Assembly: GCA_024698285.1 (NCBI GenBank) | Contig: JAILRJ010000044.1 | Coordinates: 7,134-71,133, forward strand | Length of the DNA stretch: 64,000 nt | Direction: 5' to 3' | Origin: Lachnospiraceae bacterium | Lineage (GTDB): Bacteria; Bacillota; Clostridia; Lachnospirales; Lachnospiraceae | Part shown: positions 43,766 through 63,526 of the stretch, one piece after another | Layout: each line of letters opens with the position of its first letter | Numbering within the stretch: position 1 is the stretch's first letter | The notes under the pieces: model-generated | What the model was told of the DNA's origin: nothing | The model's input: only the letters and a program-made list of their open reading frames with translations | The model's database searches: none | Made by a program: the position numbers and the translations under genes

Positions 43766-43766
43766 T

Positions 43767-44789
43767 TCAGAAATCCCCGAATCCCATCTCCCCGGCTTTC
43801 GCAACCCAGGTCGCCGCATCCGCATTTTCGACGTACAGATAATTACTGCCGTCCTCGGCATACGCATACACGACGCCGGCAAAGCCTTCAGGCTGCTCCT
43901 CTTTTGTCTTTCCGGCATCATCAAACTCACCGCTGTATGTCACTTCACCTACCGTAACATCCAGACGGTTTACATAATGCCCATCATTAATATAGCCGTT
44001 AACAACAATTATGTCAACCCCTTCGGGATCAAACTGCCTGTAACAATACTTCCCTTCTGACTTTTTGTCCGTAACTTCGACACTTCCTACACTCACTCCT
44101 CCGAAAGATATATCGCACAGATACCTGACATCCTGAGATGTTATAACCGCGCGCGTCGCAAGCTGATCCGAGGAAACCTCGGCAAAAAGCGCATCACCCG
44201 AATACTCCGTGTTCGACGTGAATGTTCCGTTATCAATATAGAAGCTCTTCTTCCAGTCATCCGATCCGATGATCTCTTTTGCCGCCTCCGGCGAAAAATC
44301 GCCCGATCCGCAATCCTTCAGCGCTTCTACAAGACTTGTCAAAAGTTCTCCCGCCTTGTCGTCATCGGCGTCGGTTATCCTAAGCGTCACGGAACTTAAC
44401 AGATTACCGTGCTCCTCGGTCGGGTCCGTTCTGTAAAGCATGAACAGGGCTTCCCTCTGCGATACGGTATCTCCGGCCTTCCCGCAAAGATCCGCGTAGT
44501 CTTTGTACTCGTCCTCGGTCATCTTATAGTTTCCGGCAAACTCTTTGTATATTGCGATCCTGCGATCGTCATCCGCCGATGCGAGCGCATTCCTGTAATC
44601 TTCTTCCGTGACAAGAACCGTCTCTTTTTCCCCGGACGAAGCGGCGCTTTCCTCGCCTGATGCTTCGGCAACACCAGACGCTTGTTCGGGCGCCTCTGCT
44701 TTGCCCGAACACGCCGACAGCATGACCGATACCGCGAACACTGCGGCGGCGATCCCTATTATATTTTTCTTTCGATTATCGATTCTCAT
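43767..44789 (-). CDS. Lipoprotein of unknown function
   Basis: I prefer ATG 44789: MRIDNRKKNIIGIAAAVFAVSVMLSAC with the lipobox LSAC. The mature part has no motif I recognise. Confidence 0.65.
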   Translation of the reverse strand: MRIDNRKKNIIGIAAAVFAVSVMLSACSGKAEAPEQASGVAEASGEESAASSGEKETVLVTEEDYRNALASADDDRRIAIYKEFAGNYKMTEDEYKDYADLCGKAGDTVSQREALFMLYRTDPTEEHGNLLSSVTLRITDADDDKAGELLTSLVEALKDCGSGDFSPEAAKEIIGSDDWKKSFYIDNGTFTSNTEYSGDALFAEVSSDQLATRAVITSQDVRYLCDISFGGVSVGSVEVTDKKSEGKYCYRQFDPEGVDIIVVNGYINDGHYVNRLDVTVGEVTYSGEFDDAGKTKEEQPEGFAGVVYAYAEDGSNYLYVENADAATWVAKAGEMGFGDF

Positions 44790-44790
44790 T

Positions 44791-45921
44791 TTACCCGAAT
44801 ATCGTGCGGTAGCCCGACTCTGCCACCGATCGTTCATTTACCGCGCTTATGTACTTTGTGCACTTTGCGCGTTTATCCGCCATCTGCTCTTCGCTCATAT
44901 GATACAGTTCGTCGATGGCCCTTGCAAATGCGGCCTTGTCTTTGAGAGGACATACATAACCGCATCCGTTCTCGTCAAGATCCATCCACGGTGTTGTATC
45001 GCTTATTACCGGAATGCATCCGGCGGACAGACTCTCGGCAACAACGTGCCCGTAGTTCTCTCCGAGCGTCGGAAACATAAATGCATCATAGTTTGCAAAT
45101 ATCTCCGGAACACTCTCGCTGTCGGCCTCTCCCTTGTATTCCCATTCAAAGCCCGGACGTATCTTCTTAAGCTCATCAAGTTTTTGCGAACATTCGCGAA
45201 GATAATCCGCATCCTCGCATGTACCGTATACATCAAGTCTTATCGCGTGATCATCATCGACTTTTCCGATCATGTCGGGAATGACTGTCAGATTTTTCTT
45301 GCGTGAGATTCGCGAGATAAAGCACATTTTCAGAAGGCCTTCCTCTTTGATGCGCTTATGCTCGGTAAGCCCCCGTCTCGGAAGATCCGTAGCGATAACG
45401 CATACACTGTCTTTCCCGATAACGTTCTTCAGTTCCTTCTCCTCCCTTTCGGACGAGACGGACCAGGTAACGTATTCAAACAGACCTGCCATCTTCATAT
45501 ATCGGATGAACAGGCGCTTCTTAAATCCTTTTATCTTAAACGCTTTGGGAGAAAAGGACCCCATGGACGCGACAAACAGCGGCGCCGTGATCTTCCCCAC
45601 CTTCTTAAGTTTCATCGCGATACGGGCATAATCTCCGTACGGGCCGCACACATACACGACATCCGCATCCGCTGCCAATCTTTCGATATCTTCGGCGGTA
45701 AACGCTTTCGTGTACCAGACCTTTGCGGATCCGACCGTATTATATTCGCCCGCCGTGATGTCGGGGTACGGTCTGTCATCTCCGTGATCGCGGTCAAGGC
45801 ACATGATCCGGAGATCGTATTCGCCGCCCATCCACTGCGTGAGGTTGACGATCGACCTTACCGGCCCGCCGTCACGGTATCCGGGCAGATATCTTCCCGT
45901 TATGATCAAAATCTTACGCAT
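44791..45921 (-). CDS. Glycosyltransferase family 4
   Basis: MRKILIITGRYLPGYRDGGPVRS..., and C-terminal FMFPTLGENYGHVVAESLSAGCIPVIS (E-x7-E region). Confidence 0.75.
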   Translation of the reverse strand: MRKILIITGRYLPGYRDGGPVRSIVNLTQWMGGEYDLRIMCLDRDHGDDRPYPDITAGEYNTVGSAKVWYTKAFTAEDIERLAADADVVYVCGPYGDYARIAMKLKKVGKITAPLFVASMGSFSPKAFKIKGFKKRLFIRYMKMAGLFEYVTWSVSSEREEKELKNVIGKDSVCVIATDLPRRGLTEHKRIKEEGLLKMCFISRISRKKNLTVIPDMIGKVDDDHAIRLDVYGTCEDADYLRECSQKLDELKKIRPGFEWEYKGEADSESVPEIFANYDAFMFPTLGENYGHVVAESLSAGCIPVISDTTPWMDLDENGCGYVCPLKDKAAFARAIDELYHMSEEQMADKRAKCTKYISAVNERSVAESGYRTIFG

Positions 45922-45923
45922 AA

Positions 45924-46784
45924 TCAGAGTCGTCCCTGTTTCTCATTCTCGTATATCTTCGCGTCAACAAGAAATCGGTACCAGTATGCCTGCATGAAGC
46001 AGAATATCTTTCCCTCCCTGCCGTCAAGAAATCCGAGACGGATGTAGTATCTGTAGAAATAATACGCATACGCCCTGAATCCGGCGGGTAGTCTGTAATA
46101 TATCTTCCAGCGCAGGAACCTCTTGAACTTCGCCTTCGCGTCAAGAGCATGTTCGCCGCCGAGTCCGGTTGAACCCGAAAAAGCGAGGCTGTTGAAATAG
46201 TCCTGCATCTCTCTCGTGGAGTAATTGTTGTGCTTGTCTATCCATGCGGACAGCCCTTTGTCGTCATGATGCAGGCTGTCATGCCGTACTTCGACGCTTC
46301 GGCCCTCATAGAGTACGCAGTGCTCGTCCATGCAGCGATCCTCGATGTTTCCTTTGCCGTATTTGAAGAGAAGGAGCTTTCGAAGCGGATACACTCCGCC
46401 GTGACGGATCGCGCGCCCCATAAAGTTTACCTCGAATCTGACCACGATGCCGTTAACATCGGTGTCCTCGTTCTCGTTGCAGAGCTTGTCTATCTCCGCC
46501 GCCGACTCTTTCGTCAGCTCCTCATCGGCGTCGATACGAAATACCCACTTTGTCGTGATATTCCCGTGCTCCATCCCGTAGAGAAACTGCTTCGCATAAA
46601 GGAACGGTTTGAGTTCGTTGACAAGAACATCTGCACCAAGATCCTTTGCGATCGATACCGTATCATCGGAGCTTCCCGAATCAACGACTATGATCCTTCT
46701 GACTATCGGCTTTATCGACTCTATGCACTTTTGGATGTTTACTTCCTCATTCTTCGTCAGAATGATCGCAGTGATATCAGCCAT
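45924..46784 (-). CDS. Glycosyltransferase family 2
   Basis: ITAIILTKNEEVNIQKCIESIKPIVRRIIVVDSGSSDDTVSIAKDLGADV...RIDADE. Confidence 0.8.
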   Translation of the reverse strand: MADITAIILTKNEEVNIQKCIESIKPIVRRIIVVDSGSSDDTVSIAKDLGADVLVNELKPFLYAKQFLYGMEHGNITTKWVFRIDADEELTKESAAEIDKLCNENEDTDVNGIVVRFEVNFMGRAIRHGGVYPLRKLLLFKYGKGNIEDRCMDEHCVLYEGRSVEVRHDSLHHDDKGLSAWIDKHNNYSTREMQDYFNSLAFSGSTGLGGEHALDAKAKFKRFLRWKIYYRLPAGFRAYAYYFYRYYIRLGFLDGREGKIFCFMQAYWYRFLVDAKIYENEKQGRL

Positions 46785-46785
46785 T

Positions 46786-47976
46786 TTATCCTACGCACTC
46801 CTTCAGCATCTTCTCTATCAGATCGATATGACGCGTCTTCGTGAAATGTTCATCGTAATAGCTTCGTGAAGCCTCGCCCATACGGCGAAAATCACCCGAC
46901 TTGGCCATTTTGTCCGCGATATCGGCAAGCGCCTTCTCATCCTCTGCCGGCGCACACATGCCGCATCTGCTCTCGTCAACGACCGCTTTTGTCTCTCCGT
47001 TTGCCGCCGCTATGACCGCCCTGCCCGCTGCCATATAAGACTGGATCTTCCCCGGAAGCGTATAGCTTATAAGGTCGTTATCGGCAAGCGTTACTATCAT
47101 CGCATCAGCCATCGCATAAAACTTCGGCATACTCTCAACCGGAAGCCTGCCATAGAACGTAACCTTATCATTAAGATTCATATCGTCACACAGTTTCTTG
47201 CATTCATCGAGTGCAAAACCGTCTCCGACGATATGCCATCTGATCCTTTCGTCGCGTACGAGCGCAGCCGCTTTTATGATCGTATCCACGCTCTGCATGT
47301 TTCCGACATTTCCGGCAAATACATAATCGATGTTATCCGTCTCTTCCTTTGCGGCAACATCGGAAAACAACTCATCCGCAAACTGCGGTATATGGACATA
47401 CTTGCCCGAACCGATCCCGAGTTCTTCCCTGAAGTACGTCTCAAACATTCGGGATGTATAACCCGTCACATTCGCTCCCTTATAGATGCGTATGCTTACG
47501 GATCTCATGAATCTGTAGAACATGCCGTTCTTATCGATCCCGAGACTCGCCAGACTTGCCGGCCAAAGATCGAGGCAGTAAAGAGCGAGGTTCTTCGTTC
47601 TTCCGAACCACTTTGCCACATACGCTGGTATGGCCATCAGGACCGGAGATAACTGATAGACGAATATCACATCAAAGTCCTTCTTCATGAATAGGGCCTT
47701 AATGCATCCGTGCCACACGAAGGACACATAGTTGCGTGCAAGTCCGACTTTGCCGGGGGTCCTCGGACGCTCCTTGACGCGTATTATATGCACACCGTTT
47801 ACCGTCTCGTCTCTGTGCTCTTTGCCCTTGTATTCCTCCGGGATAACACCCATCGGGTAATTGGGAAGTCCCGTAAGAACGGTTACATCGTGTCCGCGCC
47901 TTACAAGTTCTTCACAGACCTCATGTATCCTGAACGGTTCCGGATGATAATACTGACATACTACCAATATCTTCAT
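46786..47976 (-). CDS. WbuB/CapL-like GT4 glycosyltransferase (family that includes L-FucNAc transferases)
   Basis: MKILVVCQYYHPEPFRIHEVCEELVRRGHDVTVLTGLPNYPMG is the characteristic WbuB/WcaI-type N-terminus. Confidence 0.7.
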   Translation of the reverse strand: MKILVVCQYYHPEPFRIHEVCEELVRRGHDVTVLTGLPNYPMGVIPEEYKGKEHRDETVNGVHIIRVKERPRTPGKVGLARNYVSFVWHGCIKALFMKKDFDVIFVYQLSPVLMAIPAYVAKWFGRTKNLALYCLDLWPASLASLGIDKNGMFYRFMRSVSIRIYKGANVTGYTSRMFETYFREELGIGSGKYVHIPQFADELFSDVAAKEETDNIDYVFAGNVGNMQSVDTIIKAAALVRDERIRWHIVGDGFALDECKKLCDDMNLNDKVTFYGRLPVESMPKFYAMADAMIVTLADNDLISYTLPGKIQSYMAAGRAVIAAANGETKAVVDESRCGMCAPAEDEKALADIADKMAKSGDFRRMGEASRSYYDEHFTKTRHIDLIEKMLKECVG

Positions 47977-48917
47977 TGTCTGTCGTCACGCTTTTCTTTC
48001 TTGCCCTTCGCTTCCAGGTACTCTCTTACCTCATCGCCTATGGCACTTCGAAACGTCCTCGGGTCGTATCCGAAATCACGCGAAGCCTCCTCGTGAGGAT
48101 ACACTCTCGGCTCGCACAGCCTCTGGACTTTTTCGCGAAGGTCTATCTTTCCTATCGATACGAGATAGAAAAACCATGCACCCGCATAGGCAATCGGGAA
48201 CGGGACACTTACAAACCTCATTCTCTTCGACAGATATGCACCCATTTCGATCAGCATATCCCGAAGCGTTATCTCCTCTCCGCCCGAGAGAATATAATCG
48301 TGTCCGCCCGTTATCTTCTCGCTCACAAGAACATCGTAATAAGCCTTTCCGAGATCGGCGAAATGAACCGGCTGAAGTTCGTACTCGGCATTGTTGACAA
48401 CCGGCATGAACGGGAGCTTATCAACCATCCTTATAAACGATGCCACGTTATGATCGTTTATCGTTCCGTATATCATCGTCGGACGAAGTATCGTCAGAAT
48501 TATATTTTTGCTCTTCGACATCATGTATACGAAATCGTCTATGTTCCTGTATTCCTCACCGGCCTCTTTGTACTTGGAATAGATGCCTGTGGTGTGAACG
48601 CATATCATCCTTCTGACAAAGTTGTTTGCCGCCGCATGTACTATCTGTCTCGACCAGTGGATCCCGGCTATATGAACGATCGTATCGACACCGAGGAATG
48701 CCTCTCCGAGAAACAGTTCATCCTCCAGATCGCCGTACATACACTGGACATCAAAAGAGGGAAGGATATCTTTATCCCTCTCCCGCTCTTTGTGAAGAAG
48801 AAGCCGTATCCCTCCGGGAAACATCTTCCTGATCTTCTCCTGATTCTGTTCCAGGCGGTAGGCAAATGCCTGTCCCGATTTGCCGGTTATCCCGGTTATG
48901 GCCAGTATCTCATCCAT
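47973..48917 (-). CDS. NAD-dependent epimerase/dehydratase family SDR (CapN-like position)
   Basis: ILAITGITGKSGQAF glycine-rich start and a YSKYK catalytic motif region. ATGA overlap with the downstream GT and an 8-nt overlap with the upstream sugar transferase. Confidence 0.7.
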   Translation of the reverse strand: MDEILAITGITGKSGQAFAYRLEQNQEKIRKMFPGGIRLLLHKERERDKDILPSFDVQCMYGDLEDELFLGEAFLGVDTIVHIAGIHWSRQIVHAAANNFVRRMICVHTTGIYSKYKEAGEEYRNIDDFVYMMSKSKNIILTILRPTMIYGTINDHNVASFIRMVDKLPFMPVVNNAEYELQPVHFADLGKAYYDVLVSEKITGGHDYILSGGEEITLRDMLIEMGAYLSKRMRFVSVPFPIAYAGAWFFYLVSIGKIDLREKVQRLCEPRVYPHEEASRDFGYDPRTFRSAIGDEVREYLEAKGKKEKRDDRQ

Positions 48918-49512
48918 TCTTCGGTCCCCCTTCGCTCACGCCCTCTGCCTTTGCCACCGCAAAGAACGTTCCGAAAAAGCACTTTAAATCGAACGCAAAA
49001 CTTAATTTTTTGACATACTCGCCGTCATATGCCGCCTTGACGTCGATCGGAAGTTCATCTCTTCCGTTTATCTGAGCCCATCCGGTAAGTCCCGGCTTCA
49101 CGTCGTTCGCTCCGTACTTGTCCCGCTCATCGAGAAGATCATACTGATTCCACAGAGCGGGGCGCGGTCCGACAAAACTCATCTGTCCGGCAAATATGTT
49201 GAAAAGCTGGGGTATCTCATCGATAGAATATTTCCTGATCGCCTCCTGAAAAGGTGACAGGAGCGATGCGGCGTTCTTGAGTTCATGCGTCGGTGTATCC
49301 TTCGGCGCGCTCACCGGCATCGAACGGAACTTTATTATCATGAAATGGGATCTGTGTATCCCGACACGTTTCTGTTTGAAGAACACCGGTCCCGGTGAGT
49401 CGATCTTGATCATCACGGCGACAACGAGCATCGGTATCGCGGCAACTATGATACCTATCCCCGACAGTACGATATCGATGATCCTCTTAATGACGTTTTT
49501 GTAAATGCTCAT
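48910..49512 (-). CDS. Small monotopic phosphoglycosyl transferase (PglC/CapM/WbaP-C-terminal type)
   Basis: 200 aa: [44 protein letters not shown]...FMIIKFRSM...[21 protein letters not shown]...[14 protein letters not shown] overlap with the uvrA stop. Confidence 0.9.
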
Positions 49513-52358
49513 TTTGATTTATCCCGTTTTAAGAGCGGAGCCACATATGCTCCGGTATATGATCTCTTGTCCTTGGCAACTTCCTCGGGCGTGCCTTTCG
49601 CTATGACCTGTCCGCCTCCGTCTCCGCCTTCGGGTCCGAGATCGATGATGTAGTCCGCGGTCTTGATCACGTCGAGATTATGCTCGATAACAACGACGGT
49701 GTTACCGCCTTCCGTAAGTCTCTGGAGTATCTCGACAAGCTTGTGTACATCCGCGAAATGAAGTCCGGTCGTCGGTTCGTCAAGGATATATATGGTCCTG
49801 CCCGTACTTCTTCTCGACAGTTCCGTCGCAAGTTTGATACGCTGCGCCTCTCCTCCCGACAGTGTCGTTGAAGGCTGTCCGAGCTTGATGTATCCGAGTC
49901 CGACCTCGTTAAGTGTTTCTATCTTTCTTCTTATTGCCGGAATGTTCTCGAAGAACGGCAATGCCTCTTCCACGGTCATGTCGAGAACATCGTAAATGTT
50001 CTTTCCCTTGTACCTGACCTCGAGAGTTTCCCTGTTGTATCTCTTTCCCTTGCAGACCTCACACGGCACATACACATCGGGAAGGAAATGCATCTCGATC
50101 TTTATTATACCATCTCCGCTGCAGGCTTCGCATCTTCCGCCTTTTACGTTGAACGAAAATCGTCCCTTCGCGTATCCTCTTTCCTTCGCATCTCTTGTCG
50201 TTGCGAACAGATCCCTTATAAGGTCGAACGCTCCGGTATACGTTGCGGGATTGGATCTGGGTGTTCTTCCTATCGGAGACTGGTCTATCGCAATTATCTT
50301 GTCCAGTTCCTTAATCCCGTCGATCCCGTCATGCTTTCCGGGTATTGTCCTTGCCCTGTTAAGATCACGGGCGAGGCGTTTATACAGTATCTCGTTTATG
50401 AGCGAGCTCTTTCCGGATCCCGATACTCCCGTGACGCATGTAAATACTCCGAGGGGTATATCCACGTTTATGCCCTTGAGGTTATTCTCGCATGCTCCTT
50501 TTATCTTCAGGAACTTCTTGGGCTTACGGCGCTTGGCCGGAACGGGTATGAACAGTTCGTGACTGAGGTATCTTCCGGTCACGGAATCTTTGCACTTCAT
50601 GATGTCGGAAACGCTGCCGCAGGCAACGACCTTGCCGCCCTCGCTTCCCGCTCCCGGTCCAATATCCACTATATGATCCGCCGCCATCATGGTCTCTTCG
50701 TCATGTTCGACCACGATAAGGCTGTTCCCGAGATCTCTGAGATTGGCAAGAGCACCGAGCAGTTTTCCGTTATCCCTCTGGTGCAGTCCGATGCTCGGCT
50801 CGTCAAGTATATACGCTACGCCTACAAGACCCGAACCTATCTGTGTCGCAAGTCTTATTCTCTGGGCTTCTCCGCCCGAGAGCGATCCCGTTGCTCTTGC
50901 AAGCGTCAGGTAGTCAAGTCCGACCTCAACGAGGAACCCGAGTCTGGCCTTTATCTCTTTCAGAATTCTGGCTCCGATGAGTTCCTGCTGTTTCGTAAGT
51001 TTCAGACCGTCAACAAAATCCTTAAGCTTTACTATCGACATATTCGTCATCTCGTGGATGTTGAGTCCTCCGACGGTCACAGCCAGCGCACCGGGCTTGA
51101 GCCTCATGCCGTGGCAGGCATCACACGGTGTGAATCTCATGAACGTTTCGTATTCGGCTTTGGAACTTTCTGAAGCGGTCTCTCTGTATCTTCTCTCGAC
51201 ATTTTTGATGATACCCTCAAAGGGAACATCATAAACGCCCTCTCCGCGCATACCCTTATAGGATACTTTCAGGACTTCTCCGCCCGTTCCGTCGATGATA
51301 AGATCGTGTATCTTTTTCGGGTATTTTTCAAACGGTGTATCAAGACTGAACTTGTATTTTTTCCGCATGGCATCGAGTGTCGCATACGTGAAACTGCTCT
51401 TGTCGTTACATGACTGCCATCCCGGAACGGCTATCGCTCCTTCCATGATCGAAAGCGACTTATCGGGAATGATCAGGTCCTCATCGAATCTCATCTTGTA
51501 TCCGAGTCCCGCACACTCCGGGCATGCACCGAACGGATTGTTGAACGAGAAACTTCTCGGTTCAATCTCGTCAATGCTTATATTACAGTCCGGACATGAA
51601 AAGCTCTGGGAGAAAGTCAGCATCTTGCCGTCAATCACGTCAACATATACGAGTCCGTCCGACAGTTGCATGACGGTCTCTATCGAGTCCGTCAGTCTTT
51701 TGTTGATGCCTTCTTTGACCACAAGTCTGTCGACGATTATCTCGATATTGTGCTTAATATTCTTGTCGAGCTTTATATCCTCGGAAAGCTCATACATATT
51801 GCCGTCAACACGTACTCTTACATAACCGCTCTTTGCGGCGCGCTCGAACACTTTTGAATGCTCACCTTTACGGCCCCTGACTACAGGAGCAAGAAGCTGG
51901 ATCTTCGTTCCTTCCGGAAGACTCATGACAAAATCCGTCATCTGGTCAACGCTTTGGCGCTTTATCTCCTTGCCGCAGTTCGGACAATGCGGCGTACCTA
52001 TCCTTGCATACAAAAGACGGAAATAATCATATATTTCCGTTACGGTCCCCACGGTAGATCTGGGGTTCTTGTTCGTTGATTTCTGATCTATCGATATAGC
52101 GGGAGGAAGTCCCTCTATCGAATCAACTTCGGGCTTTTCCATCTGGCCCAGAAACTGCCTTGCATAGGACGACAGCGATTCCATGTATCGTCTCTGTCCT
52201 TCCGCATAGATGGTGTCAAACGCCAGTGATGATTTTCCGGACCCGGAAAGTCCAGTCAGTACGACCAGTTCATTTCTGGGGATGTCTATATCGATATCTT
52301 TGAGATTATGCTCTTTTGCGCCCCTGATGCGTATCATGGGGATCTTTTTTTCAGCCAT
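49509..52358 (-). CDS. uvrA: Excinuclease ABC subunit A
   Basis: 949 aa. [50 protein letters not shown], zinc-finger Cys pairs and a second Walker [11 protein letters not shown]. Confidence 0.98.
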
Positions 52359-53874
52359 CGTATGTTACCTCAAACGTTTCAAGAAGATACGTCTTACCGT
52401 CGGTCTCACTGTATGCGAACAGATCGATCTGCGACTGTACCATGAACCTTCTCTGAATGCTCAGCGAGAATCTGTTCACTCCCTCTTCCTCAGACTGCCT
52501 GTGAAGCAGACAGTAATCCGTTTCGATGCATTCGTCATCCGTCTTGGCATATACATCGATCTTACCGAGATCCTCCGGAGCGTTAACCACTCCTTCGATC
52601 TTGAATATCGAAGTCATGTCGTTTGGATCGAGCACGATCTTCGATCCTTCAACTCTTCCGCCCGAAACGGAAGTGACATCGTATGTAACACCCGGATTGT
52701 CGCTGTATACTCCGTCGCCTTTATAGGGAGGTTCGTAATAGTACCCGGAAAAATCACTCGTTATCGGCATCTCGCTCGATATAGAACGTTCCGCCGTCTC
52801 GAAGACGACCATATCGGGAAACGTCAGATTCACGAAATACTGAACGTAATCGCTGTTCTGTCTGTGAACAAAATATACCTCCTTAAAACGGTTATCGTAA
52901 AACTTCTGGTACGACTGGAAATAACTGTCGGTAAAGACAAGAAGTCTTCTGTTGTTCGGTGCGCTCTCGTTAATATGATGCGTGTAGAACGTGTCGGTAC
53001 TGCAGTCCATTGAAGGCTTCAAAAGTTCCGTGTAATCCGCGGTAAGATCGTCCCTGAGCGAGTAGAGCGGCACATCCTCGTCTATGGAAAACTTCGCATT
53101 ATCAAGTGTGTCAACATGGACGGTGTTAAGATCGAAGTTGTCCCTGCAAAGCGGCGGAACGTCATCAAACCATTCCCTGATCTTTTCGTCGATCAGTTCG
53201 TGACCTATGAACGCGCCCCTGTCGTTCCAGTGTGTAACGTCATAGAGTTTGTTGTACAAAAGATCGTCACCTTTGGCCGCCTCAAGTTCGTCTCTCGGAT
53301 CGATATAGCATACTCCCGACGATGCCATCTTCGAATCGAGATACGAAAGCACCGATTCGTTTTCGTTATTGACGTGAACCGTTTTCGGGAAATATTCGGG
53401 ATATATCGTCTTCTTGTCGGGGCAAACGAAATACAGGAACTTTATATCCTTGGACTGTAAATAGTCATTCGTCTTCTCCAGAAACTCCACCATTGAATCA
53501 ATGTATTCCTTATCGGTGTTGAGTCTCTGATATGCCGCGATATAATCCTTGTCCTTGTAATATATATGGCCATCCTCGCCCCACATGAACAGCGGGTTGA
53601 CCATTGCGCCGAACAGGGCGTTGTTAGCTTCGGTATAAACAGCGATTGCTCCCTCTCTGAAACCGATCCTGTCGTTTACATAGTCGTATACCGATTTCAT
53701 ATAATCTTCCGAGAACTCGAACTCGGGCCACTCCTCGAGCATCTTGTTCTCATACTCGCTCGTCTGGTTCTTCTTAAGGTTCATGAAGAACACCGGCAAC
53801 ACAAGGAGCAGGCAGAACAGGGTGATAAATACCACTGACGGTATGCTGTTTTTGTCGATCTTAAGCTTACCCAT
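52351..53874 (-). CDS. AlgJ/AlgX/DHHW-like extracytoplasmic O-acyltransferase partner of MBOAT, with an extra C-terminal domain
   Basis: 507 aa with an N-terminal signal anchor ([19 protein letters not shown]). [19 protein letters not shown] resembles the D-x-x-H-W catalytic block of AlgJ/AlgX-type SGNH-like proteins. It lies directly downstream of an MBOAT gene. The ~130-aa C-terminal part is unassigned. Confidence 0.55.
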
Positions 53875-53877
53875 AGA

Positions 53878-55332
53878 TTAAAACTGAAAATATATAAACG
53901 GTGAATACGTTGTGTTGACTATGAATATGAAACTGATAACGAGAAGCATAAGAAGGCAGGCATGCCTTGCGATCCTCGGAACCTTTTTGTCGCTGTCGGT
54001 AAATTCGGCGATACGCGCACTTACAAATCTCGGTAATACCTGTGCCCACGGAACACATGCCAAGAGAGCTATTATCAGGAAGAACGCAAGTCTCGCATCA
54101 AGGAAAAATCCGAGTGAGAACGCATTATAATCGTGATGTTCAAGGTGGAACATTACCTTTATGTATGACAGCGCCTGCGCGATATCCTCGATCTTGAACA
54201 TGACCCATCCGATCGATACCGCGAGTATCGTGTAGCCCCATTTAAGTGCGGAAGATACAAATGCCGGAAGTGCAAACGGAAGCTTCTTTCCCTTAAGAGC
54301 ACGCTCGATCAGCATAAACAGTCCGTGCCACAGTCCCCATACGACAAATCCCCATGCGGCCCCGTGCCACAGTCCCGTGGCAAGGAAAACGATCAGAAGA
54401 TTGACGTACACGTTACCGCGTCTGTTACCTCCGAGCGGAATGTACAGGTAATCCCGAAACCAGCTTCCGAGCGTGATATGCCATCTTCTCCAGAACTCCG
54501 TTACGGATTTTGAAATATACGGATAATTGAAGTTCTCGGCAAATTCGAATCCGAACATCTTTCCGAGACCCACAGCCATATCGGTATATCCAGCAAAATC
54601 GAAATAGATCTGAAGCGTATAAAGAACCGCACCGAGCCATGCCACCTGTGTAGACATGCCCGACGTATCCATAGCAAATATCTTATCGCATACTTCACCG
54701 ATCGTATTGGCTATTATCGCCTTCTTCGCAAGACCGACTATGAACCGCTCGATACCCTTTACGAACTGGTCCGTCGTTGCCGACAGTTTTTCAAGAGAAT
54801 CCTTTACATCCGCAAATCTTATGATCGGTCCCTGAAGGAGCTGTGCAAACATGGTGATATAAAGCGCGAACTTAAGCGGGTCCTTTGTTGCGATCCTATT
54901 CGGACCTTCATCGGCACCCGCACGGTAAACATCAGTTATGTATGATATGCATTGGAATGTGTAGAAAGAAATTCCGAGAGGCAGGATGATCTTCGGGATC
55001 ACCGCATCCTTACCGAATATCCCGTTATATGTTTCCACAAAGAAACCCGTGTATTTGAACCAGATCAGGGAGCCGATATTGACGAGCACTCCGACCGCAA
55101 GAGCGATCTTCTGATGTGTCCTTGTACCGAGAGAGGATATAACGATACCCGCCGCAAAGTTAAACACTATCGATGCGATAAGATATATGAGATGCTTCGG
55201 TCCCCCGCATGCATAAAAGCCGAGGCTCGCAACAAGAAGCCATATACCTCTCGCCTTTTGCGGCAGTATATAATAGCCGAGCAGAGTCGCCGGCAGAAAC
55301 ATACAAAGGAATGTAACCGAACTAAATACCAT
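53878..55332 (-). CDS. MBOAT-family membrane O-acyltransferase (AlgI/DltB/PatA-like)
   Basis: 484 aa, polytopic. MVFSSVTFLCMFLPATLLGYY start and ...FWRRWHITLGSWFRDYLYIPLGGNR with the conserved MBOAT His. Confidence 0.9.
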   Translation of the reverse strand: MVFSSVTFLCMFLPATLLGYYILPQKARGIWLLVASLGFYACGGPKHLIYLIASIVFNFAAGIVISSLGTRTHQKIALAVGVLVNIGSLIWFKYTGFFVETYNGIFGKDAVIPKIILPLGISFYTFQCISYITDVYRAGADEGPNRIATKDPLKFALYITMFAQLLQGPIIRFADVKDSLEKLSATTDQFVKGIERFIVGLAKKAIIANTIGEVCDKIFAMDTSGMSTQVAWLGAVLYTLQIYFDFAGYTDMAVGLGKMFGFEFAENFNYPYISKSVTEFWRRWHITLGSWFRDYLYIPLGGNRRGNVYVNLLIVFLATGLWHGAAWGFVVWGLWHGLFMLIERALKGKKLPFALPAFVSSALKWGYTILAVSIGWVMFKIEDIAQALSYIKVMFHLEHHDYNAFSLGFFLDARLAFFLIIALLACVPWAQVLPRFVSARIAEFTDSDKKVPRIARHACLLMLLVISFIFIVNTTYSPFIYFQF

Positions 55333-56093
55333 TATCTGATCTTTTCCAATTCATTCTTGAGCTTCTCGGGAGACCATCTGGAAACGGTAACACCCGACTG
55401 CTTCTTGCCTCTACGCATGAGCTGAGCGACCTGCTTTAAGTATTCAACGGTCACCTTAGAGGACAGTTTCGATTCGCCTGCGGGACGAGCCTGGAACTTG
55501 TACGGTATCTCGACAACGCTCTTGTACGTACCCATAGCAAGCACTTCGACCATTATCTTCCACCCTATCGGCTGCAGGTCGGCGCCTTCTATCACCGCAC
55601 GTCTGAACATGAACAGTCCGCTCGTCGGATCGGTGATCTTGCGAAGCGAAGGCAGTGCGATCTTTCCGATGTAACGTGCGACTCCCGAAACGAGCTTTCT
55701 GTACGGCCCGAGTCCCCCGTCGCTTCCGCCCGGTATGAACCTTGAAGGCACACAGAAATCCGCTCCCGTCTCCATGACAGCATACATGCTCTTAAGAATT
55801 GCAGGCGGATGCTGAAGGTCCGCATCCATTACGGCTATATAGTCGCCGCTTGCAAGCGAAAATCCCTTAAGCACAGCTGTCGCAAGCCCTTTTTCCGTCT
55901 CGCGGTGTTCCATCCGGACGTTGTGATTTTCGCCCATAACTCTTTTGATCGCCTCAGGCGTATCATCCGTGGAATCGTCGATAAATATAACCTCGTACTC
56001 TATCCCGCGGAGTGCGTAATCTATCTGGTTAACGAGATTGCCGACGTTCTCGGACTCGTTATATGTCGGTACTACTATTGATATCCTGCCCAA
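55332..56093 (-). CDS. GT2 polyprenol-phosphate glycosyltransferase-like (DPM1/GtrB/ArnC-like catalytic domain, no TM segment)
   Basis: ISIVVPTYNESENVGNLVNQI...YEVIFIDDSTDDTPE...VMDADLQHPP. TTG start at 56093 is preceded by GGAGGA with a 7-nt spacer and directly follows the uvrB TAA. Confidence 0.8.
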   Translation of the reverse strand: MGRISIVVPTYNESENVGNLVNQIDYALRGIEYEVIFIDDSTDDTPEAIKRVMGENHNVRMEHRETEKGLATAVLKGFSLASGDYIAVMDADLQHPPAILKSMYAVMETGADFCVPSRFIPGGSDGGLGPYRKLVSGVARYIGKIALPSLRKITDPTSGLFMFRRAVIEGADLQPIGWKIMVEVLAMGTYKSVVEIPYKFQARPAGESKLSSKVTVEYLKQVAQLMRRGKKQSGVTVSRWSPEKLKNELEKIR

Positions 56094-58073
56094 TTACAGA
56101 TCCTCCAAATGCTTTTTGAGATCTATCATCTTGTCACGAAGAGTTGCCGCGGTTTCGAAATCGAGTTCCGCAGCGGCACGCCTCATGCCCTTTTCCACAC
56201 TTGCAATAAGCTTCTTAAGCTCCTTCTCGTCCATGGATTCTGGATCCTTGGCAAATCCCGCCTCCTCTTTGGCGATCTCCTTGTGAATACTGATAAGATC
56301 GCGGACCGCCTTCCTGATCGTAGTCGGAGTGATACCGTTCTCCTTGTTGTATTCATCCTGGATACGGCGTCTTCTCTCGGTCTCGTCTATCGCCGCCTTC
56401 ATCGAATCGGTCATCGTATCGGCGTACATGATTATGCGTCCGTCGCTGTTTCTGGCGGCTCTTCCGATAGTCTGTATGAGCGACGTACGGGATCTTAAGA
56501 ACCCTTCCTTGTCCGCATCCAGCACCGCAACAAGTCCTATCTCGGGTATATCGAGGCCCTCACGAAGCAGATTGATACCGACAAGCACATCAAACACGTC
56601 AAGTCTCATGTCGCGTATGATCTTGGCACGCTCAAACGTGTCTATATCAGAATGAAGATAACGTACACGTATTCCGACATCCTTCATGTATGCCGTAAGA
56701 TCCTCGGCCATCTTCTTGGTGAGCGTTGTGACAAGTACTTTGTTGCCCGCTTTGACCTCTTTGCGGATCTCGCCGATAAGATCGTCTATCTGCCCCTTCG
56801 TGGGCTTGACCGTAACTTCCGGATCGAGAAGACCCGTCGGCCGGATGATCTGTTCGGCTCTGTCGAGTTCGTGCTCTTCCTCGTACGGTCCGGGGGTTGC
56901 CGACACGAACATCATCTGGTCTATTTTACCTTCAAACTCGCCAAAGTTCAAGGGACGGTTGTCCTTCGCGGAAGGCAGTCTGAAGCCGTAATCCACAAGC
57001 GATGTCTTCCTCGCACGGTCGCCGTTATACATCGCTCCGAGCTGAGGAATCGTCATATGAGATTCATCGACGATGATAAGGTAATCATCGCCGAAATAGT
57101 CCATCAGGGTATAAGGCGGATCGCCCGCTTTGGCGCCGGTCAGATGCCTTGAATAGTTCTCGATTCCCGAGCAGAATCCGGTCTCCTGAAGCATCTCTAT
57201 ATCAAATCTCGTTCTCTCGCTTATACGCTGCGCCTCGATCAGCTTATCCTCGCTCTTAAAGAATCTCACCTGTTCGGCAAGTTCCTCTTCGATCGTAGAC
57301 ACCGCCCGTGCAAGCTTGTCCTTCGGGATGACGTAATGGGAAGCCGGGAATATCGCAAAGTGGTTAAGCGTTGAGTGGACCTTACCTGTCAGGGGATCGA
57401 ACTCGGATATCCTGTCGATCTCATCGCCGAAGAATTCCACCCTGATCCCGTACTCACTCTCCCATGCGGGAAAGACTTCCACGGTATCGCCCATAACACG
57501 GAAGCGCCCGCGGGCAAAATCGATCTGGTTGCGCTCGTAACTTATCTCGATAAGTTCACGGACAACATCGTCCCTGTCCTTTTGCATACCGGGACGGAGC
57601 GAAACGCACATGTTCTGATAATCGGAAGGAGATCCTATGCCGTATATGCATGAAACCGACGCAACGACAATGACATCTCGTCTTTCCGACAGCGATGTCG
57701 TCGCGGAGAGTCTGAGCTTATCGATCTCGTCGTTTATCGACGAATCCTTCTCGATATACGTATCAGACGACGGTATATATGCCTCGGGCTGGTAATAGTC
57801 GTAATAGGATACAAAATACTCCACCGCGTTTTCGGGGAAGAATTCTTTCATCTCCGAATACAACTGCCCGGCGAGTGTTTTGTTGTGGCTGACGATCAGC
57901 GTAGGCTTATTAAGCGCCGCAATGACATTGGCCATCGTAAATGTCTTACCTGACCCCGTTACGCCAAGAAGAGTTTCAAACTGGTTACCCTGTCTGAAAC
58001 CCTCAACAAGCTTTGCTATGGCCTGCGGCTGGTCGCCGGTAGGCTGATATTCCGAGTGAAGCTTAAATTCCAT
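56094..58073 (-). CDS. uvrB: Excinuclease ABC subunit B
   Basis: [25 protein letters not shown]...[17 protein letters not shown]..., and a C-terminal UVR domain ([21 protein letters not shown]). Confidence 0.98.
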
Positions 58074-58095: not shown

Positions 58096-59280
58096 TCATC
58101 GTTTAAAGCGAAACAGTCCGGGCATTTTCCAGATCCTGCTGCCCCGCACGAAAGCAGCAACCATAATACCAAAGAAGACTGCTATATAGAACGGGAAAGA
58201 TCCCATTCCGAGCGCCTGTCCCAAAATACCGCAGATAATGGGACCCGTCACTATAGCCAGACTGGCGAATGCCATCTGGGTTCCGATTATCGCAAGAGAA
58301 CGGCTCTTGCCGAAGTTCTCGGGAGCAAGATAGTTGAAGTTCGGGAACATCGGTCCGTTTCCGAGTCCGATCATCATGAGGGCAATGATCGTGACCGTGT
58401 TGTTTGGGATAAATATCAGCATAAGGATAGCCGTCCCAAGCGTTATCAGACCGAGCTTAACAATCTGCCAGCTGTGAAGTTTCCTGGTCAGGAATCCCGA
58501 TATAAGTCTTCCGAGAGTCATGCCCAGATAGTAGAACGTCACGGAACCCGCGGCAAGTTCGTTGCTTACATGCCTGTGTTCAACAAGAAACGTACTGCTC
58601 CAGTTTCCGACCGAAGATTCGATGACGCATGACGTTACAAACAGAAGCCACATGACCTTGACACCTTTGATAGAAGCCGCTTCCCTTATGGACAGCGTCT
58701 CATATTTCTCTTCCTCTTGTGCATCCGTTTTGTGAACTTTTTTCCATATCGGAAGGGTGACAATCAGTAATAACGCGAGCCCCATCTGTATGAAAGAGGC
58801 GATCCTGTAACCGGTCCTCCAATCCATTCCGTTTCCGAACACAAGCGTCATTATAAAAGGACTGACCGTAACGCCGATCCCGTAGAAGCAGTGCAGAAAA
58901 CTCATCTGTGATGCGCTGTAATGCAAAGCAACATAGTTATTGAGCGCCGTATCTATCGATCCCGCTCCGAGTCCGAGAGGTACTGCCAGAACACATAAAT
59001 ATATAAAGCTTCCCGACATACTGAATCCGAACAACGATAAGGCCGTGATCAGCGTGCATATGGCAGTCAGCTTATTCGTCCCGAGCAGTTTTATGAGCCT
59101 TGCGCTCATAAGACTTGAAATCACCGTCATTCCGGAACAAATGCCCGTGACTATTCCGCCCGTCGATAAAGGCAGGCCGAATTCGGTATAGATCGAGGGC
59201 CACGAGGCTCCGAAAAGGGAGTCCGGAAGTCCGAGTCCGATAAAAGCCAGATATATAACCGTTATCAGTAGGGTTGCCAT
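58096..59280 (-). CDS. MFS transporter
   Basis: 394 aa with about 12 TM helices and the N-terminus MATLLITVIYLAFIGLGLPDSLFGASWPS. Substrate unknown. Confidence 0.8.
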   Translation of the reverse strand: MATLLITVIYLAFIGLGLPDSLFGASWPSIYTEFGLPLSTGGIVTGICSGMTVISSLMSARLIKLLGTNKLTAICTLITALSLFGFSMSGSFIYLCVLAVPLGLGAGSIDTALNNYVALHYSASQMSFLHCFYGIGVTVSPFIMTLVFGNGMDWRTGYRIASFIQMGLALLLIVTLPIWKKVHKTDAQEEEKYETLSIREAASIKGVKVMWLLFVTSCVIESSVGNWSSTFLVEHRHVSNELAAGSVTFYYLGMTLGRLISGFLTRKLHSWQIVKLGLITLGTAILMLIFIPNNTVTIIALMMIGLGNGPMFPNFNYLAPENFGKSRSLAIIGTQMAFASLAIVTGPIICGILGQALGMGSFPFYIAVFFGIMVAAFVRGSRIWKMPGLFRFKR

Positions 59281-62571: not shown

Positions 62572-62583
62572 TGACGGTCCTCA

Positions 62584-63525: not shown

Positions 63526-63526
63526 C

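Follow-up and report, generated by a model that had tools for sequence, protein, structure and literature searches.

The uvrB and uvrA genes of Firmicutes form a LexA-regulated operon, as exemplified by dinA/uvrB-uvrA of Bacillus subtilis. A LexA-regulated uvrBA operon is likewise described for C. difficile (PMC4234289). In the 64-kb stretch of Lachnospiraceae DNA analyzed here (hereafter called the window), the same two genes occur in the same order and on the same strand, but three envelope genes spanning 3.7 kb are nested between them, and uvrA is joined to a glycan cluster. The locus raises the question of whether these envelope genes take part in a DNA-damage response or simply share a transcript with their neighbors.

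All genes concerned lie on the minus strand, in the order MFS, uvrB, GT2, MBOAT, AlgJ/PatB-like, uvrA, phosphoglycosyl transferase (PGT), and further glycan genes. The MFS transporter gene (58096..59280; Pfam MFS_1, E=1.6e-41) precedes a full-length uvrB gene (56094..58073; 659 aa; Pfam UvrB_inter, UvrB, Helicase_C, ResIII, and UVR), whose product is 88-93% identical to that of clade relatives. The intervening genes encode a GT2 glycosyltransferase with a TTG start (55332..56093; 253 aa; Pfam Glycos_transf_2, E=3.5e-30), an MBOAT membrane-bound O-acyltransferase (53878..55332; 484 aa; Pfam MBOAT, E=2.6e-29), and a PatB1/AlgJ/AlgX-like SGNH-type O-acetyltransferase partner (52351..53874; 507 aa; Pfam ALGX, E=1.5e-8), hereafter the PatB-like protein. 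The uvrA gene (49509..52358; 949 aa; Pfam UvrA_inter, UvrA_DNA-bind, and ABC_tran) encodes a class I UvrA in which the UvrB-binding domain is present, and the small PGT gene follows (48910..49512; 200 aa; Pfam Bac_transf, E=7.5e-56). As read from the sequence, MFS and uvrB are separated by 22 nt, the uvrB stop codon TAA directly abuts the GT2 TTG (gap 0), GT2 and MBOAT overlap by 1 nt (TAATG), MBOAT and the PatB-like gene are 3 nt apart, the PatB-like gene overlaps uvrA by 8 nt (ATGGCTGA), and uvrA overlaps the PGT gene by 4 nt (ATGA). The gene identities and junctions given in a preliminary description of this DNA all hold, as the open reading frame coordinates match and Pfam agrees gene by gene.

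Compact spacing is general in the window, where 44 of 51 neighboring minus-strand ORF pairs are no more than 25 nt apart, and abutting co-directional genes run on upstream (MFS, transglutaminase, DUF58, MoxR, and PFOR). The locus stands out not for its close packing as such but for which genes separate uvrB from uvrA. Because compact co-directional spacing prevails throughout the window, spacing alone cannot delimit a transcription unit, and promoters within coding sequence must exist somewhere. The genes could thus be adjacent yet transcriptionally independent, with promoters in the coding sequences of MFS, uvrB, uvrA, and perhaps others, and with tight junctions that reflect only a compact genome. 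The close packing of even unrelated neighbors, such as PFOR/MoxR and MFS/uvrB, favors this reading, which on the whole we consider rather doubtful for reasons that begin with the junctions themselves.

Of 14 close relatives, 13 share the 1-nt overlap of GT2 with MBOAT, and 13 share the 8-nt overlap of the PatB-like gene with uvrA; the GT2 TTG start, together with a GGAGGA sequence located within the 3' end of uvrB, is likewise kept in 13 of 14. At the uvrA junction, the arrangement TTTGAGGT-N8-ATG is kept in all 15 clade members. The Shine-Dalgarno (SD) sequences of GT2 and uvrA are carried inside the respective preceding genes. The exact overlaps, the GT2 TTG, and the embedded SD sequences persist over approximately 14 species in which synonymous sites are saturated; the junction geometry is kept against a background identity of only about 0.5 at synonymous codons. 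The conservation of the PatB-like/uvrA overlap, with its SD sequence in the upstream gene, argues against independent units. The 8-nt overlap presupposes that the first uvrA ATG is the start. This ATG and the GAGGT upstream of it are kept in 15 of 15 clade members, whereas a second ATG, 21 nt downstream, is kept in only 12 of 15. The public gene call for the closest relative (L175) starts uvrA at the second ATG, which leaves a 13-nt gap instead.

Comparative synteny, the check proposed in the preliminary description, reveals an old and inherited layout. A total of 24 species-level Lachnospiraceae genomes, most of which come from ruminants (rumen and gut group), have the order uvrB-GT2-MBOAT-PatB-like-uvrA, and nine further species carry uvrB-GT2-uvrA. 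By relatedness, the five-gene order was seen in 14 close species, one further relative, and 12 more divergent species. In most other Lachnospiraceae, uvrB lies directly beside uvrA. Within a uvrA-seeded Lachnospiraceae sample, uvrB was found no more than 10 kb upstream at 65 loci and was mostly directly adjacent, which bears out the earlier statement that uvrBA adjacency is the norm; some of these loci have gaps of approximately 0.5-2 kb holding small unrelated ORFs, and only two have a GT2 gene in this position. The arrangement had been presented as an unusual regulatory linkage, with an ancestral and widespread layout named as half of what would speak against that view. It is in fact ancestral and widespread in the clade, and we conclude that it is an inherited, conserved operon variant rather than a quirk of one genome. 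Nothing was found to favor mis-assembly or a chimeric contig as the source of the glycan genes between these two, and the chance of it is negligible, given that more than 20 independent assemblies, made in different studies, show this gene order, that contigs from an independent DNA run (X3) cross every junction, and that GC content and skew are uniform over the region.

The five-gene species form a single clade on a neighbor-joining tree of UvrB (bootstrap 30/40, 75%). Counting against a simple history, the UvrA tree fails to recover the clades (bootstraps of 8/30 and 0/30), and the GT2 tree places non-linked GT2s between the two uvr-linked groups instead of joining these as sisters. The distribution suggests a history in which, in one Lachnospiraceae lineage, a DPM1-like GT2 gene would first have entered the ancestral uvrB-uvrA operon; the MBOAT and PatB/AlgJ-like pair would have followed, and in the sub-clade of the window uvrA would in addition have come to abut the PGT-initiated glycan cluster.

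The predicted functions of the inserted genes point to modification of wall polymers. The GT2 is of the DPM1-like polyprenol-phosphate hexose synthase type, and its catalytic domain is strongly similar to that of an archaeal member of the DPM1/Ppm1 polyprenol-phosphate mannose synthases (P. furiosus dolichol-phosphate mannose synthase 5mlz; phmmer E=1.2e-62 over residues 3-227); its best NCBIfam matches (PgfS, ArnC, and AglJ) are all far under cut-off. A GT2 beside a YfhO-type GT-C enzyme is a known architecture for multi-component transmembrane glycosylation, in which a CsbB/GtrB-type GT2 acts with a flippase and the GT-C (PMC5836110, PMC8035078). Orthologs in Lachnospira fit this pattern, as they adjoin a YfhO GT-C gene and have no uvr linkage. 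In contrast to the CsbB/GtrB-type and DPM1/Ppm1 proteins, the GT2 of the window lacks a transmembrane domain, including the C-terminal one, and no YfhO homolog is detectable within the window. The enzyme would make a polyprenol-phosphate sugar for glycosylating a wall polymer outside the membrane.

Pairs of MBOAT and SGNH proteins are a known route for acylating wall polymers, and the window pair resembles PatA/PatB, B. cereus PatA1/PatB1, AlgI/AlgJ/AlgX, and DltB/DltD in combining an MBOAT with a membrane-anchored extracytoplasmic SGNH-like partner (PMC12148441). The MBOAT matches DltB structures 6bug and 8jem (E of about 6e-26), scores 166 bits against the NCBIfam DltB model (short of its cut-off of 375), and shows a WRRWHITLG His motif in the alignment. 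Three parts make up the PatB-like protein: a membrane helix at the N terminus, the catalytic domain, and a beta-sandwich at the C terminus. Its AlphaFold model (pLDDT 84.5) finds B. cereus PatB1 as the best Foldseek match (5v8d; E=1.6e-11, TM-target 0.70), with DHHW protein 4nzk, AlgJ 4o8v, and AlgX 4knc among the other top matches. The fold thus agrees with PatB1, AlgJ, and AlgX, and the Asp/His/Ser catalytic candidates (D212, H215, and S317) are invariant. The partner in the window differs from those of known pairs in being longer (507 aa), in its beta-sandwich, and in belonging to a narrow family of 198 members among 5.8 billion proteins, exclusively from Lachnospiraceae. These two proteins would act as a two-component O-acyltransferase decorating a wall glycan, and the position of such a pair inside uvrBA is new.

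Downstream of uvrA, the PGT is the initiating enzyme of a glycan pathway, and NCBIfam EPS_sugtrans matches its C-terminal domain. The genes that follow on the same strand encode an NAD-dependent epimerase/dehydratase-like protein (47973..48917; 314 aa; weak Pfam 3Beta_HSD, NAD_binding_10, and Epimerase matches), whose position is kept in 14 relatives; a WcaI-like GT4 glycosyltransferase (46786..47976; Pfam Glyco_trans_1_4 and Glycos_transf_1; NCBIfam WcaI subfamily E=1.5e-34, under cut-off); a second GT2 (45924..46784; 286 aa; Pfam Glycos_transf_2, E=1.3e-13); a GT4 of 376 aa (44791..45921; Pfam Glycos_transf_1, E=3.8e-15); and a protein that has a lipoprotein-type signal peptide in its N-terminal sequence (MRIDNRKKNIIGIAAAVFAVSVMLSAC from codon 17) and lacks any Pfam or NCBIfam match (43767..44837). 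This last gene is followed, 50 nt beyond its stop codon, by a terminator-like hairpin from the terminator scan (43695..43717, minus strand; 10-bp stem, then T8). Between uvrB and this hairpin, none of the short junctions holds a minus-strand site of comparable strength; the hairpin likely marks the 3' end of a gene string beginning at or before uvrB.

The upstream side is less uniform. The MFS gene is a neighbor specific to the species or strain of the window; it is absent upstream of uvrB in all 10 clade relatives with upstream sequence and in L175 as well, and the MFS/uvrB junction recurs in a related strain from run X3. Unlike the Firmicutes operon, the window has no intergenic promoter region upstream of uvrB. 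A candidate extended -10 element, TGgTATTAT (58163..58171, minus strand), read from the sequence within the MFS 3' end, lies approximately 90 nt upstream of the uvrB ATG, comparable to the distance of the LexA box in relatives (93-106 nt upstream of uvrB). It was missed by the consensus promoter scan because its -35 is poor, and its role as the uvrB promoter is speculative.

The preliminary description also suggested a shared stress response. Functional coupling of this kind would make envelope glycan O-acetylation and glycosylation a deliberate DNA-damage response, induced through LexA together with uvrB and uvrA, possibly so that the wall better resists autolysins, lysozyme, or lysis by prophage while the SOS response is on. 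The position weight matrix search for LexA boxes proposed there found no LexA/Cheo box in the 64-kb window (best score 9.0, versus at least 15.7 for real boxes), and of the 10 close relatives whose sequence extends upstream, 7 likewise have none; the suggestion is therefore weak for this genome. Elsewhere the picture differs. Clostridial-type boxes (GAACAAATGTTC/T; cf. PMC4234289) occur upstream of uvrB at 29 of 65 Lachnospiraceae loci, and several clade relatives have a GAAC-N4-GTT(C/T) box approximately 75-300 nt upstream of uvrB. Boxes are present in five-gene species L086, L087, and L094, more weakly in L100 and L102, and in uvrB-GT2-uvrA species L065, L111, and L139. In all of these they precede uvrB only and never uvrA. 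In L086, L087, L094, L065, L111, and L139, the locus has a single box, ahead of uvrB, so that lifting LexA repression must increase read-through into the envelope genes.

There is a precedent for a damage-induced wall gene in B. subtilis, where tagC (dinC), a gene of the teichoic-acid locus, is LexA-regulated. This LexA-controlled wall-glycopolymer gene resembles the situation predicted for L086, L087, L094, and L111, but tagC has its own LexA-regulated promoter, whereas induction here would come only by read-through from uvrB, and the species of the window lacks any LexA box. TagC-GFP is among the fluorescent strains of a paper using single-cell SOS reporters (PMC10197577). Retention of the linkage over 24 + 9 species also speaks for functional coupling, and the split uvr-linked groups on the GT2 tree could reflect insertions that happened at this junction more than once. 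However, the small unrelated ORFs found between uvrB and uvrA in other Lachnospiraceae indicate that this junction simply tolerates insertions, and in Lachnospira the GT2 functions, as does a distantly related MBOAT, with no link to uvr genes. Taken with the missing boxes, these observations make a deliberate damage response distinctly unlikely.

Also bearing on both alternatives is a block within uvrB (codons ~373-388; 56908..56954, minus strand) that emerged from the promoter scan and from synonymous conservation and is conserved at the nucleotide level. This 47-nt block, CCC TTGAAC TTTnnnGAGTTTGARGG TAAAAT AGACCAG ATGATGTT, can be read as a sigma-70-type promoter, TTGAAC-17-TAAAAT (-35 at 56951-56946, -10 at 56928-56923), approximately 820 nt upstream of GT2, although only 9 of 12 positions agree with the consensus. 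In synonymous conservation the block ranks first among 2,213 windows across 15 species (0.98 versus 0.50; z=5.8) and first among 1,216 across 24 species (z=5.7), with no RNA structure signal (z=-0.8) and no Rfam match. The motif occurs in 23 of 24 five-gene species versus 2 of 67 others, an association that amounts to one evolutionary event rather than 23 independent ones because the five-gene species are one clade. Outgroups show a milder elevation (0.59 versus 0.40), so part of the signal may reflect another family-wide constraint. A weaker case is a perfect extended -10, TGgTATAAT, within uvrA (50104..50112, minus strand), approximately 600 nt upstream of the PGT start; 11 of 15 clade-1 species share it, codon position included. 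Its conservation peak (z=3.1) is confined to clade 1 and is gone once group 2 is added. As a possible internal promoter for the glycan genes beyond uvrA, it is a weak candidate.

The elements within uvrB (strong) and uvrA (weaker) could partly decouple downstream genes, as independent units would predict, and the uvrB element points to selection for expression that does not rely on the uvrB promoter, which counts against a LexA-driven response. Transcription from it would still carry GT2 through uvrA on one transcript, however, and no positionally conserved promoter-like motif exists in the 3.7 kb of GT2, MBOAT, and PatB-like sequence ahead of uvrA. In addition, uvrA has no LexA box of its own in any linked arrangement, whereas uvrA genes unlinked to uvrB in other lineages often do. 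Metatranscriptome data (assembled contigs) match several genes of the locus; no contig crosses a junction or marks a 5' end.

The recurrence of gene order and overlaps across relatives makes co-transcription likely; combined with translational coupling at some of the junctions, it offers the most economical reading. A polycistronic unit would extend from uvrB, or here perhaps from further upstream, to the terminator near 43.7 kb, with ribosomes handed on at the uvrB/GT2, GT2/MBOAT, PatB-like/uvrA, and uvrA/PGT junctions. The element within uvrB probably feeds the envelope genes and uvrA apart from the uvrB promoter. We favor, with a probability of roughly 0.6, an inherited operon variant in which envelope genes entered an ancestral uvrB-uvrA operon and hitch-hike on its expression. 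The linkage would then be structural, on a constantly needed housekeeping transcript, and this is preferred over a dedicated DNA-damage program because this genome has no LexA box.

The sequence of this genome gives no sign of wall modification switched on by DNA damage. Instead, the block within uvrB may give the wall genes and uvrA expression that is independent of the uvrB promoter. In relatives that carry a LexA box, SOS induction would raise expression of the envelope genes too, as a by-product.

All genes of the locus lie on the minus strand. From 5' to 3', they are an MFS transporter gene (58096-59280), uvrB (56094-58073), a GT2 gene (55332-56093), an MBOAT gene (53878-55332), an ALGX-domain gene that we call PatB-like (52351-53874), uvrA (49509-52358), and a small phosphoglycosyl transferase (PGT) gene with a Bac_transf domain (48910-49512). 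The open reading frame (ORF) list of the window reproduces each of these coordinates as reported in the preliminary description, Pfam agrees with the gene identities assigned there, and the junctions read from the sequence have the geometry it described. Specifically, 22 nt separate the MFS gene from uvrB, the uvrB stop codon TAA is followed directly by the TTG start of GT2, GT2 and MBOAT meet at TAATG, 3 nt lie between MBOAT and the PatB-like gene, the latter overlaps uvrA by 8 nt (ATGGCTGA), and uvrA and the PGT gene share ATGA. The canonical Firmicute adjacency of uvrB and uvrA is therefore absent, as 3.7 kb and three genes intervene. The 8-nt overlap holds only when the first ATG of uvrA is taken as the start; this codon and a GAGGT 5' of it are kept in all 15 species of the clade formed by the window and its 14 close relatives. 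The second ATG is not conserved among these species but was nevertheless chosen in one public annotation. Contigs from an independent DNA run cover every junction, so the layout is not an assembly artefact.

Junction-based evidence for an operon must be weighed against the general compactness of the window: of 51 pairs of adjacent minus-strand ORFs, 44 are no more than 25 nt apart, some of them unrelated (PFOR/MoxR and MFS/uvrB, for example). We scored the conservation of the junctions among the 14 close relatives. The gap between uvrB and GT2 ranges from 0 to 19 nt, the TTG start of GT2 is kept in 13 of 14 species, and the final codons of uvrB encode a GGAGGA 5' of GT2. The 1-nt GT2/MBOAT overlap is likewise found in 13 of 14, as is the 8-nt PatB-like/uvrA overlap, which sits inside an invariant TTTGAGGT-N8-ATG. 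The MBOAT/PatB-like and uvrA/PGT junctions are variable, although never longer than 32 nt. Because the background synonymous codon identity of the same genes is about 0.5, the retained junctions are maintained by selection, and together they make a good, if indirect, case for a translationally coupled operon. Assembled contigs from ruminant metatranscriptomes include pieces of MBOAT, PatB-like, uvrB, uvrA, and MFS at 95% identity or more; these are short pieces, none of which spans a gene junction or marks a 5' end, and they are compatible with expression in vivo. Judging from the conserved junctions, co-transcription and coupling of the genes from uvrB to uvrA are likely.

Both repair proteins are full length, with all domains above the Pfam gathering thresholds. 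UvrB (659 aa) has the helicase core, the UvrA-interaction domain, and the UVR motif, and UvrA (949 aa) is a class I protein with two ABC modules and the UvrB-binding and DNA-binding insertion domains. Residues 3-227 of GT2 match the catalytic domain of the Pyrococcus dolichol-phosphate mannose synthase (5mlz; E=1.2e-62), whose membrane domain is absent from GT2. An invariant MDADLQHPP motif supplies the DXD expected of a DPM1/Ppm1-type GT-A domain, and the NCBIfam matches (PgfS, ArnC, and AglJ), although all sub-threshold, are all to polyprenol-phosphate sugar synthases. A tblastn search found no homologue of a YfhO-type GT-C partner in the window; such a partner may have its gene in another part of the genome. 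In nine Lachnospira loci (L110 and L113-L120 of our protein-seeded scans), a GT2 orthologue that is 67-69% identical occurs with no uvr genes nearby, in a cluster with YfhO, an uncharacterised 412-aa protein, an epimerase, and a phosphohexomutase. The combination of YfhO and GT2 corresponds to a three-component glycosylation architecture (PMC5836110, PMC8035078), and this context supports a role for GT2 as a supplier of lipid-linked sugar.

The MBOAT protein scores 103 bits against the Pfam model (cut-off 27), its WRRWHITLG histidine motif aligns with that of a Lachnospira MBOAT, and it matches DltB structures (E about 6e-26). It is not a DltB equivalog, since it reaches 166 bits against an NCBIfam cut-off of 375 and the locus carries neither dltA nor dltC. 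The PatB-like protein has no match in the PDB by sequence, but an AlphaFold model built from 25 homologues (pLDDT 84.5) matches the folds of Bacillus cereus PatB1, a DHHW-family protein, AlgJ, and AlgX, with probability 1.0 and TM-target values of 0.62-0.70 for PatB1, AlgJ, and AlgX. The original label "AlgJ-like" was thus apt. The model places an N-terminal membrane helix at residues 8-29 and a C-terminal beta-sandwich. Residues D212, H215, and S317 are invariant in the 25 sequences, and we take them to be the Asp-His...Ser triad by analogy with the AlgX/AlgJ residues rather than by superposition. Established MBOAT-SGNH pairs (PatA/PatB, AlgI/AlgJ) combine an MBOAT bearing the histidine motif with an adjoining membrane-anchored SGNH-like partner, and both are present here. 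We therefore regard the two proteins as a putative MBOAT-SGNH wall-polymer acyltransferase of the PatA/PatB kind (PMC12148441). The PatB-like family is very narrow, with 198 matches at E ≤1e-5 among 5.8 billion proteins, and all named matches are "hypothetical protein" entries from Lachnospiraceae.

Envelope functions also account for most of the remaining window. The PGT gene 3' of uvrA is followed by an epimerase-like gene, GT4, GT2, and GT4 genes, and a gene (43767-44837) with a lipoprotein-like signal peptide, the lipobox LSAC, and no family match; a terminator-like hairpin (43717-43695) comes after these glycan genes. Beyond the hairpin is a 685-aa ORF (41873-43930) with a C-terminal GDSL/SGNH domain; because its annotated start overlaps the hairpin, the real start probably lies further 3'. 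MreB and flagellar rod genes occupy about 38-40.6 kb. A large surface-polysaccharide region (665-29219) carries two Polysacc_synt (Wzx-type) flippases, two Wzy_C proteins, WbsX, GT2 and GT4 transferases, a cytidylyltransferase-domain protein, a UDP-GlcNAc 2-epimerase, sugar-nucleotide enzymes, three proteins of the Polysacc_synt_2 dehydratase/epimerase family, DUF6077, and several large proteins without Pfam matches. At the other end (59265-64000), 5' of the MFS gene, same-strand genes abut one another: a C-terminal fragment of PFOR (window end to about 63527) and genes for a MoxR AAA ATPase (62584-63651), DUF58 (61501-62571), and a transglutaminase-domain membrane protein (59265-61574), all on the minus strand. 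MoxR, DUF58, and transglutaminase genes form a classic trio.

To place the arrangement in context, we scanned for uvrA with one genome per species and obtained 80 Lachnospiraceae loci at 67-80% identity. In most, uvrB adjoins uvrA directly; about fifteen lack uvrB in the 10 kb searched, a GT2 separates the two genes in two loci, and in some, small unrelated ORFs fill gaps of about 0.5-2 kb. These inserted ORFs (97-218 aa) differ among ten loci (L013, L015, L046, L051, L058, L061, L063, L064, L069, and L073), with one recurrent family of ~100 aa that starts M(L/E)RDE...EISxR, and the uvrB/uvrA junction seems to tolerate insertions. A search seeded with the PatB-like protein recovered 14 species, mostly ruminant MAGs with 86-93% identical uvrA, and the order uvrB-GT2-MBOAT-PatB-like-uvrA-PGT-epimerase-GT4-GT2 is identical in all 14; the closest protein relative (90% identical) shares the same gene context. 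Seeding with a GT2 alignment added 12 more divergent species in which the five genes keep their order (uvrA 77-81%, MBOAT 50-55%, and PatB-like 45-55% identical) and, together with the two from the uvrA scan, brought the uvrB-GT2-uvrA group to nine species. The expectation that uvrB and uvrA are normally adjacent thus stands for most Lachnospiraceae in the uvrA scan, but not for 24 five-gene and nine uvrB-GT2-uvrA species. The linkage had been described as unusual; the synteny comparison indicates that the uvrB-GT2-MBOAT-PatB-like-uvrA arrangement is ancestral in its clade. Our literature search found no paper that combines uvrBA with a glycosyltransferase in one operon or describes the present layout.

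The gene trees do not agree on how this arrangement arose. In the neighbour-joining tree of UvrB, the 24 five-gene species form one clade without intruders (30 of 40 bootstraps), nested in a larger clade of all 31 GT2-containing species (19 of 40). The UvrA tree recovers neither clade, with 0 of 30 bootstraps uniting all species with uvr-linked GT2, and the GT2 tree places unlinked GT2s between the two uvr-linked groups, which are not sisters. Given this conflict, a single history of nested insertion is the simplest reading of the trees but is not established, and GT2 may instead have been captured repeatedly at the same uvrB/uvrA junction, which would imply selection for linkage. The Lachnospira GT2 cluster sometimes adds a distant MBOAT and an uncharacterised 363-aa partner. 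We rejected this trio as the same pre-formed module and do not treat the components as orthologous, since the MBOATs are 31% identical and the partners have no significant BLASTP similarity. A MAG labelled Treponema sp. (L108) carries a GT2 that is 73% identical to that of the window and nested in the five-gene GT2 clade; no uvr gene lies within 6 kb of it, and the finding reflects either mis-binning of a Lachnospiraceae contig or a transfer. Overall, we favour an inherited operon variant whose genes are co-transcribed and translationally coupled, with a probability of roughly 60%.

A shared stress response had been suggested for the repair and envelope genes, together with a search for LexA/DinR boxes. 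Clostridial LexA operators resemble GAACAAATGTT(C/T) (PMC4234289), and the canonical Firmicute uvrBA operon has a GAAC-N4-GTTC (Cheo) box 5' of uvrB that the window lacks. Such boxes occur 75-340 nt 5' of uvrB in 29 of 65 Lachnospiraceae loci, against a chance expectation of about 0.02 boxes per locus estimated from pattern degeneracy. We built a position weight matrix (PWM) from these 29 boxes, and its scan across the whole 64-kb window, like the exact and one-mismatch patterns, found no LexA box: the highest-scoring PWM site, at 19303, reaches 9.0, compared to at least 15.7 for the training boxes. A one-mismatch site inside the MFS gene (58345-58356) was rejected with a PWM score of 3.5. None of the relatives has an MFS gene 5' of uvrB, and the 3' end of this gene contains a possible extended -10 element on the minus strand (TGgTATTAT, 58171-58163).

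Among relatives, uvrA genes unlinked to uvrB often carry their own LexA box. In eight loci from Lacrimispora, Hungatella, Blautia-like, and related species (L003, L005, L006, L008, L011, L018, L027, and L031), no uvrB is present within 10 kb of uvrA, which has a GAAC-N4-GTT(C/T) box 58-148 nt upstream. The GT2-containing arrangements with a box 5' of uvrB (L086, L087, L094, L065, L111, and L139, and more weakly L100 and L102) are different, as no GT2-containing arrangement has a box before uvrA. With the sole box 5' of uvrB, SOS derepression must cross the envelope genes to reach uvrA in those species. A dedicated shared stress response is therefore not supported in this genome, whose window has no LexA box, and in some relatives it could arise only as a by-product of read-through. 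Locus L084 has a strong LexA-type box at 2077-2096 (TTGAGAACAATTGTTCAATA, PWM 21.4), 1.5 kb 5' of uvrB and inside or beside a 682-aa ORF. The literature offered no directly usable account of dinC/tagC with LexA.

Promoters internal to the operon were sought as motifs recurring at the same alignment position in the 15 close species. No recurrent promoter-like motif was found in GT2, MBOAT, or PatB-like (at most 6 of 15 species), whereas uvrB has one in 11 of 12 and uvrA one in 11 of 15. A separate scan of synonymous sites from uvrB through GT4 (2213 windows) gave a single outlier, uvrB codons 374-385, with a codon identity of 0.98 versus 0.50 ± 0.08 (z=5.8), which remains the outlier with 24 species (0.85, z=5.7). 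The conserved 47-nt block (minus strand, 56954-56908) reads CCC TTGAAC TTTnnnGAGTTTGARGG TAAAAT AGACCAG ATGATGTT, that is, TTGAAC and TAAAAT 17 nt apart and then an in-frame ATGATG. It is fixed in 23 of 24 five-gene species and occurs in none of the nine uvrB-GT2-uvrA species and in 2 of 58 others (L009 and L016). Outgroups have a milder synonymous elevation at this position (0.59 versus 0.40), so part of the constraint may be of earlier origin.

RNA structure does not explain the block (folding z=-0.8), and Rfam gave no match at E ≤1 in 43-64 kb, including the block. An internal translation start at M386-M387 is also unlikely, given that the SD-like GAAGG, about 14 nt upstream, is too distant. 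The block has the hexamers, the 17-nt spacing, and the synonymous constraint of a sigma-70-type promoter, and it is best read as a candidate internal promoter about 820 nt 5' of GT2; a -35 element of GAAC plus TTT would also fit an ECF-type promoter. Such a promoter would allow GT2, MBOAT, PatB-like, and uvrA to be expressed independently of the uvrB promoter. The motif in uvrA, a perfect extended -10 (TGgTATAAT, minus strand, 50112-50104) about 600 nt 5' of the PGT gene, recurs at the same codon in 11 of the 15 close species. Its synonymous peak (z=3.1) is confined to the 15-species clade and disappears when the more divergent five-gene species are added, and we treat it as a weak lead to a further internal promoter.

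A bolder scenario, which we consider improbable, is that the repair operon of this ruminant-gut clade serves as a scaffold for wall-decoration genes under two-tier control. A LexA-repressed promoter 5' of uvrB would raise wall O-acylation and glycosylation along with repair upon damage, a selected promoter embedded in uvrB would otherwise keep the wall genes and uvrA on, and the DPM1-like GT2 might have been captured repeatedly at the uvrB/uvrA junction. Each component belongs to a known kind, and the novelty lies in the nested architecture and in the selected element within uvrB. If the envelope genes are only hitch-hiking, the locus is an ordinary, neatly documented case of gene-order evolution. 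In practice, neither annotation pipelines nor regulon predictions for Lachnospiraceae should presume that uvrA lies directly 3' of uvrB or carries an SOS box of its own. If our reading is true, the locus would be a clear case in nature both of nested insertions tolerated by an operon and of a promoter kept within conserved coding sequence by synonymous-site selection. If the envelope genes do ride the uvrBA transcript, DNA damage would alter how the wall is acetylated and glycosylated in those relatives with a LexA box, and the changed wall could affect the sensitivity of these abundant rumen fibre-degraders to lysozyme and phage.
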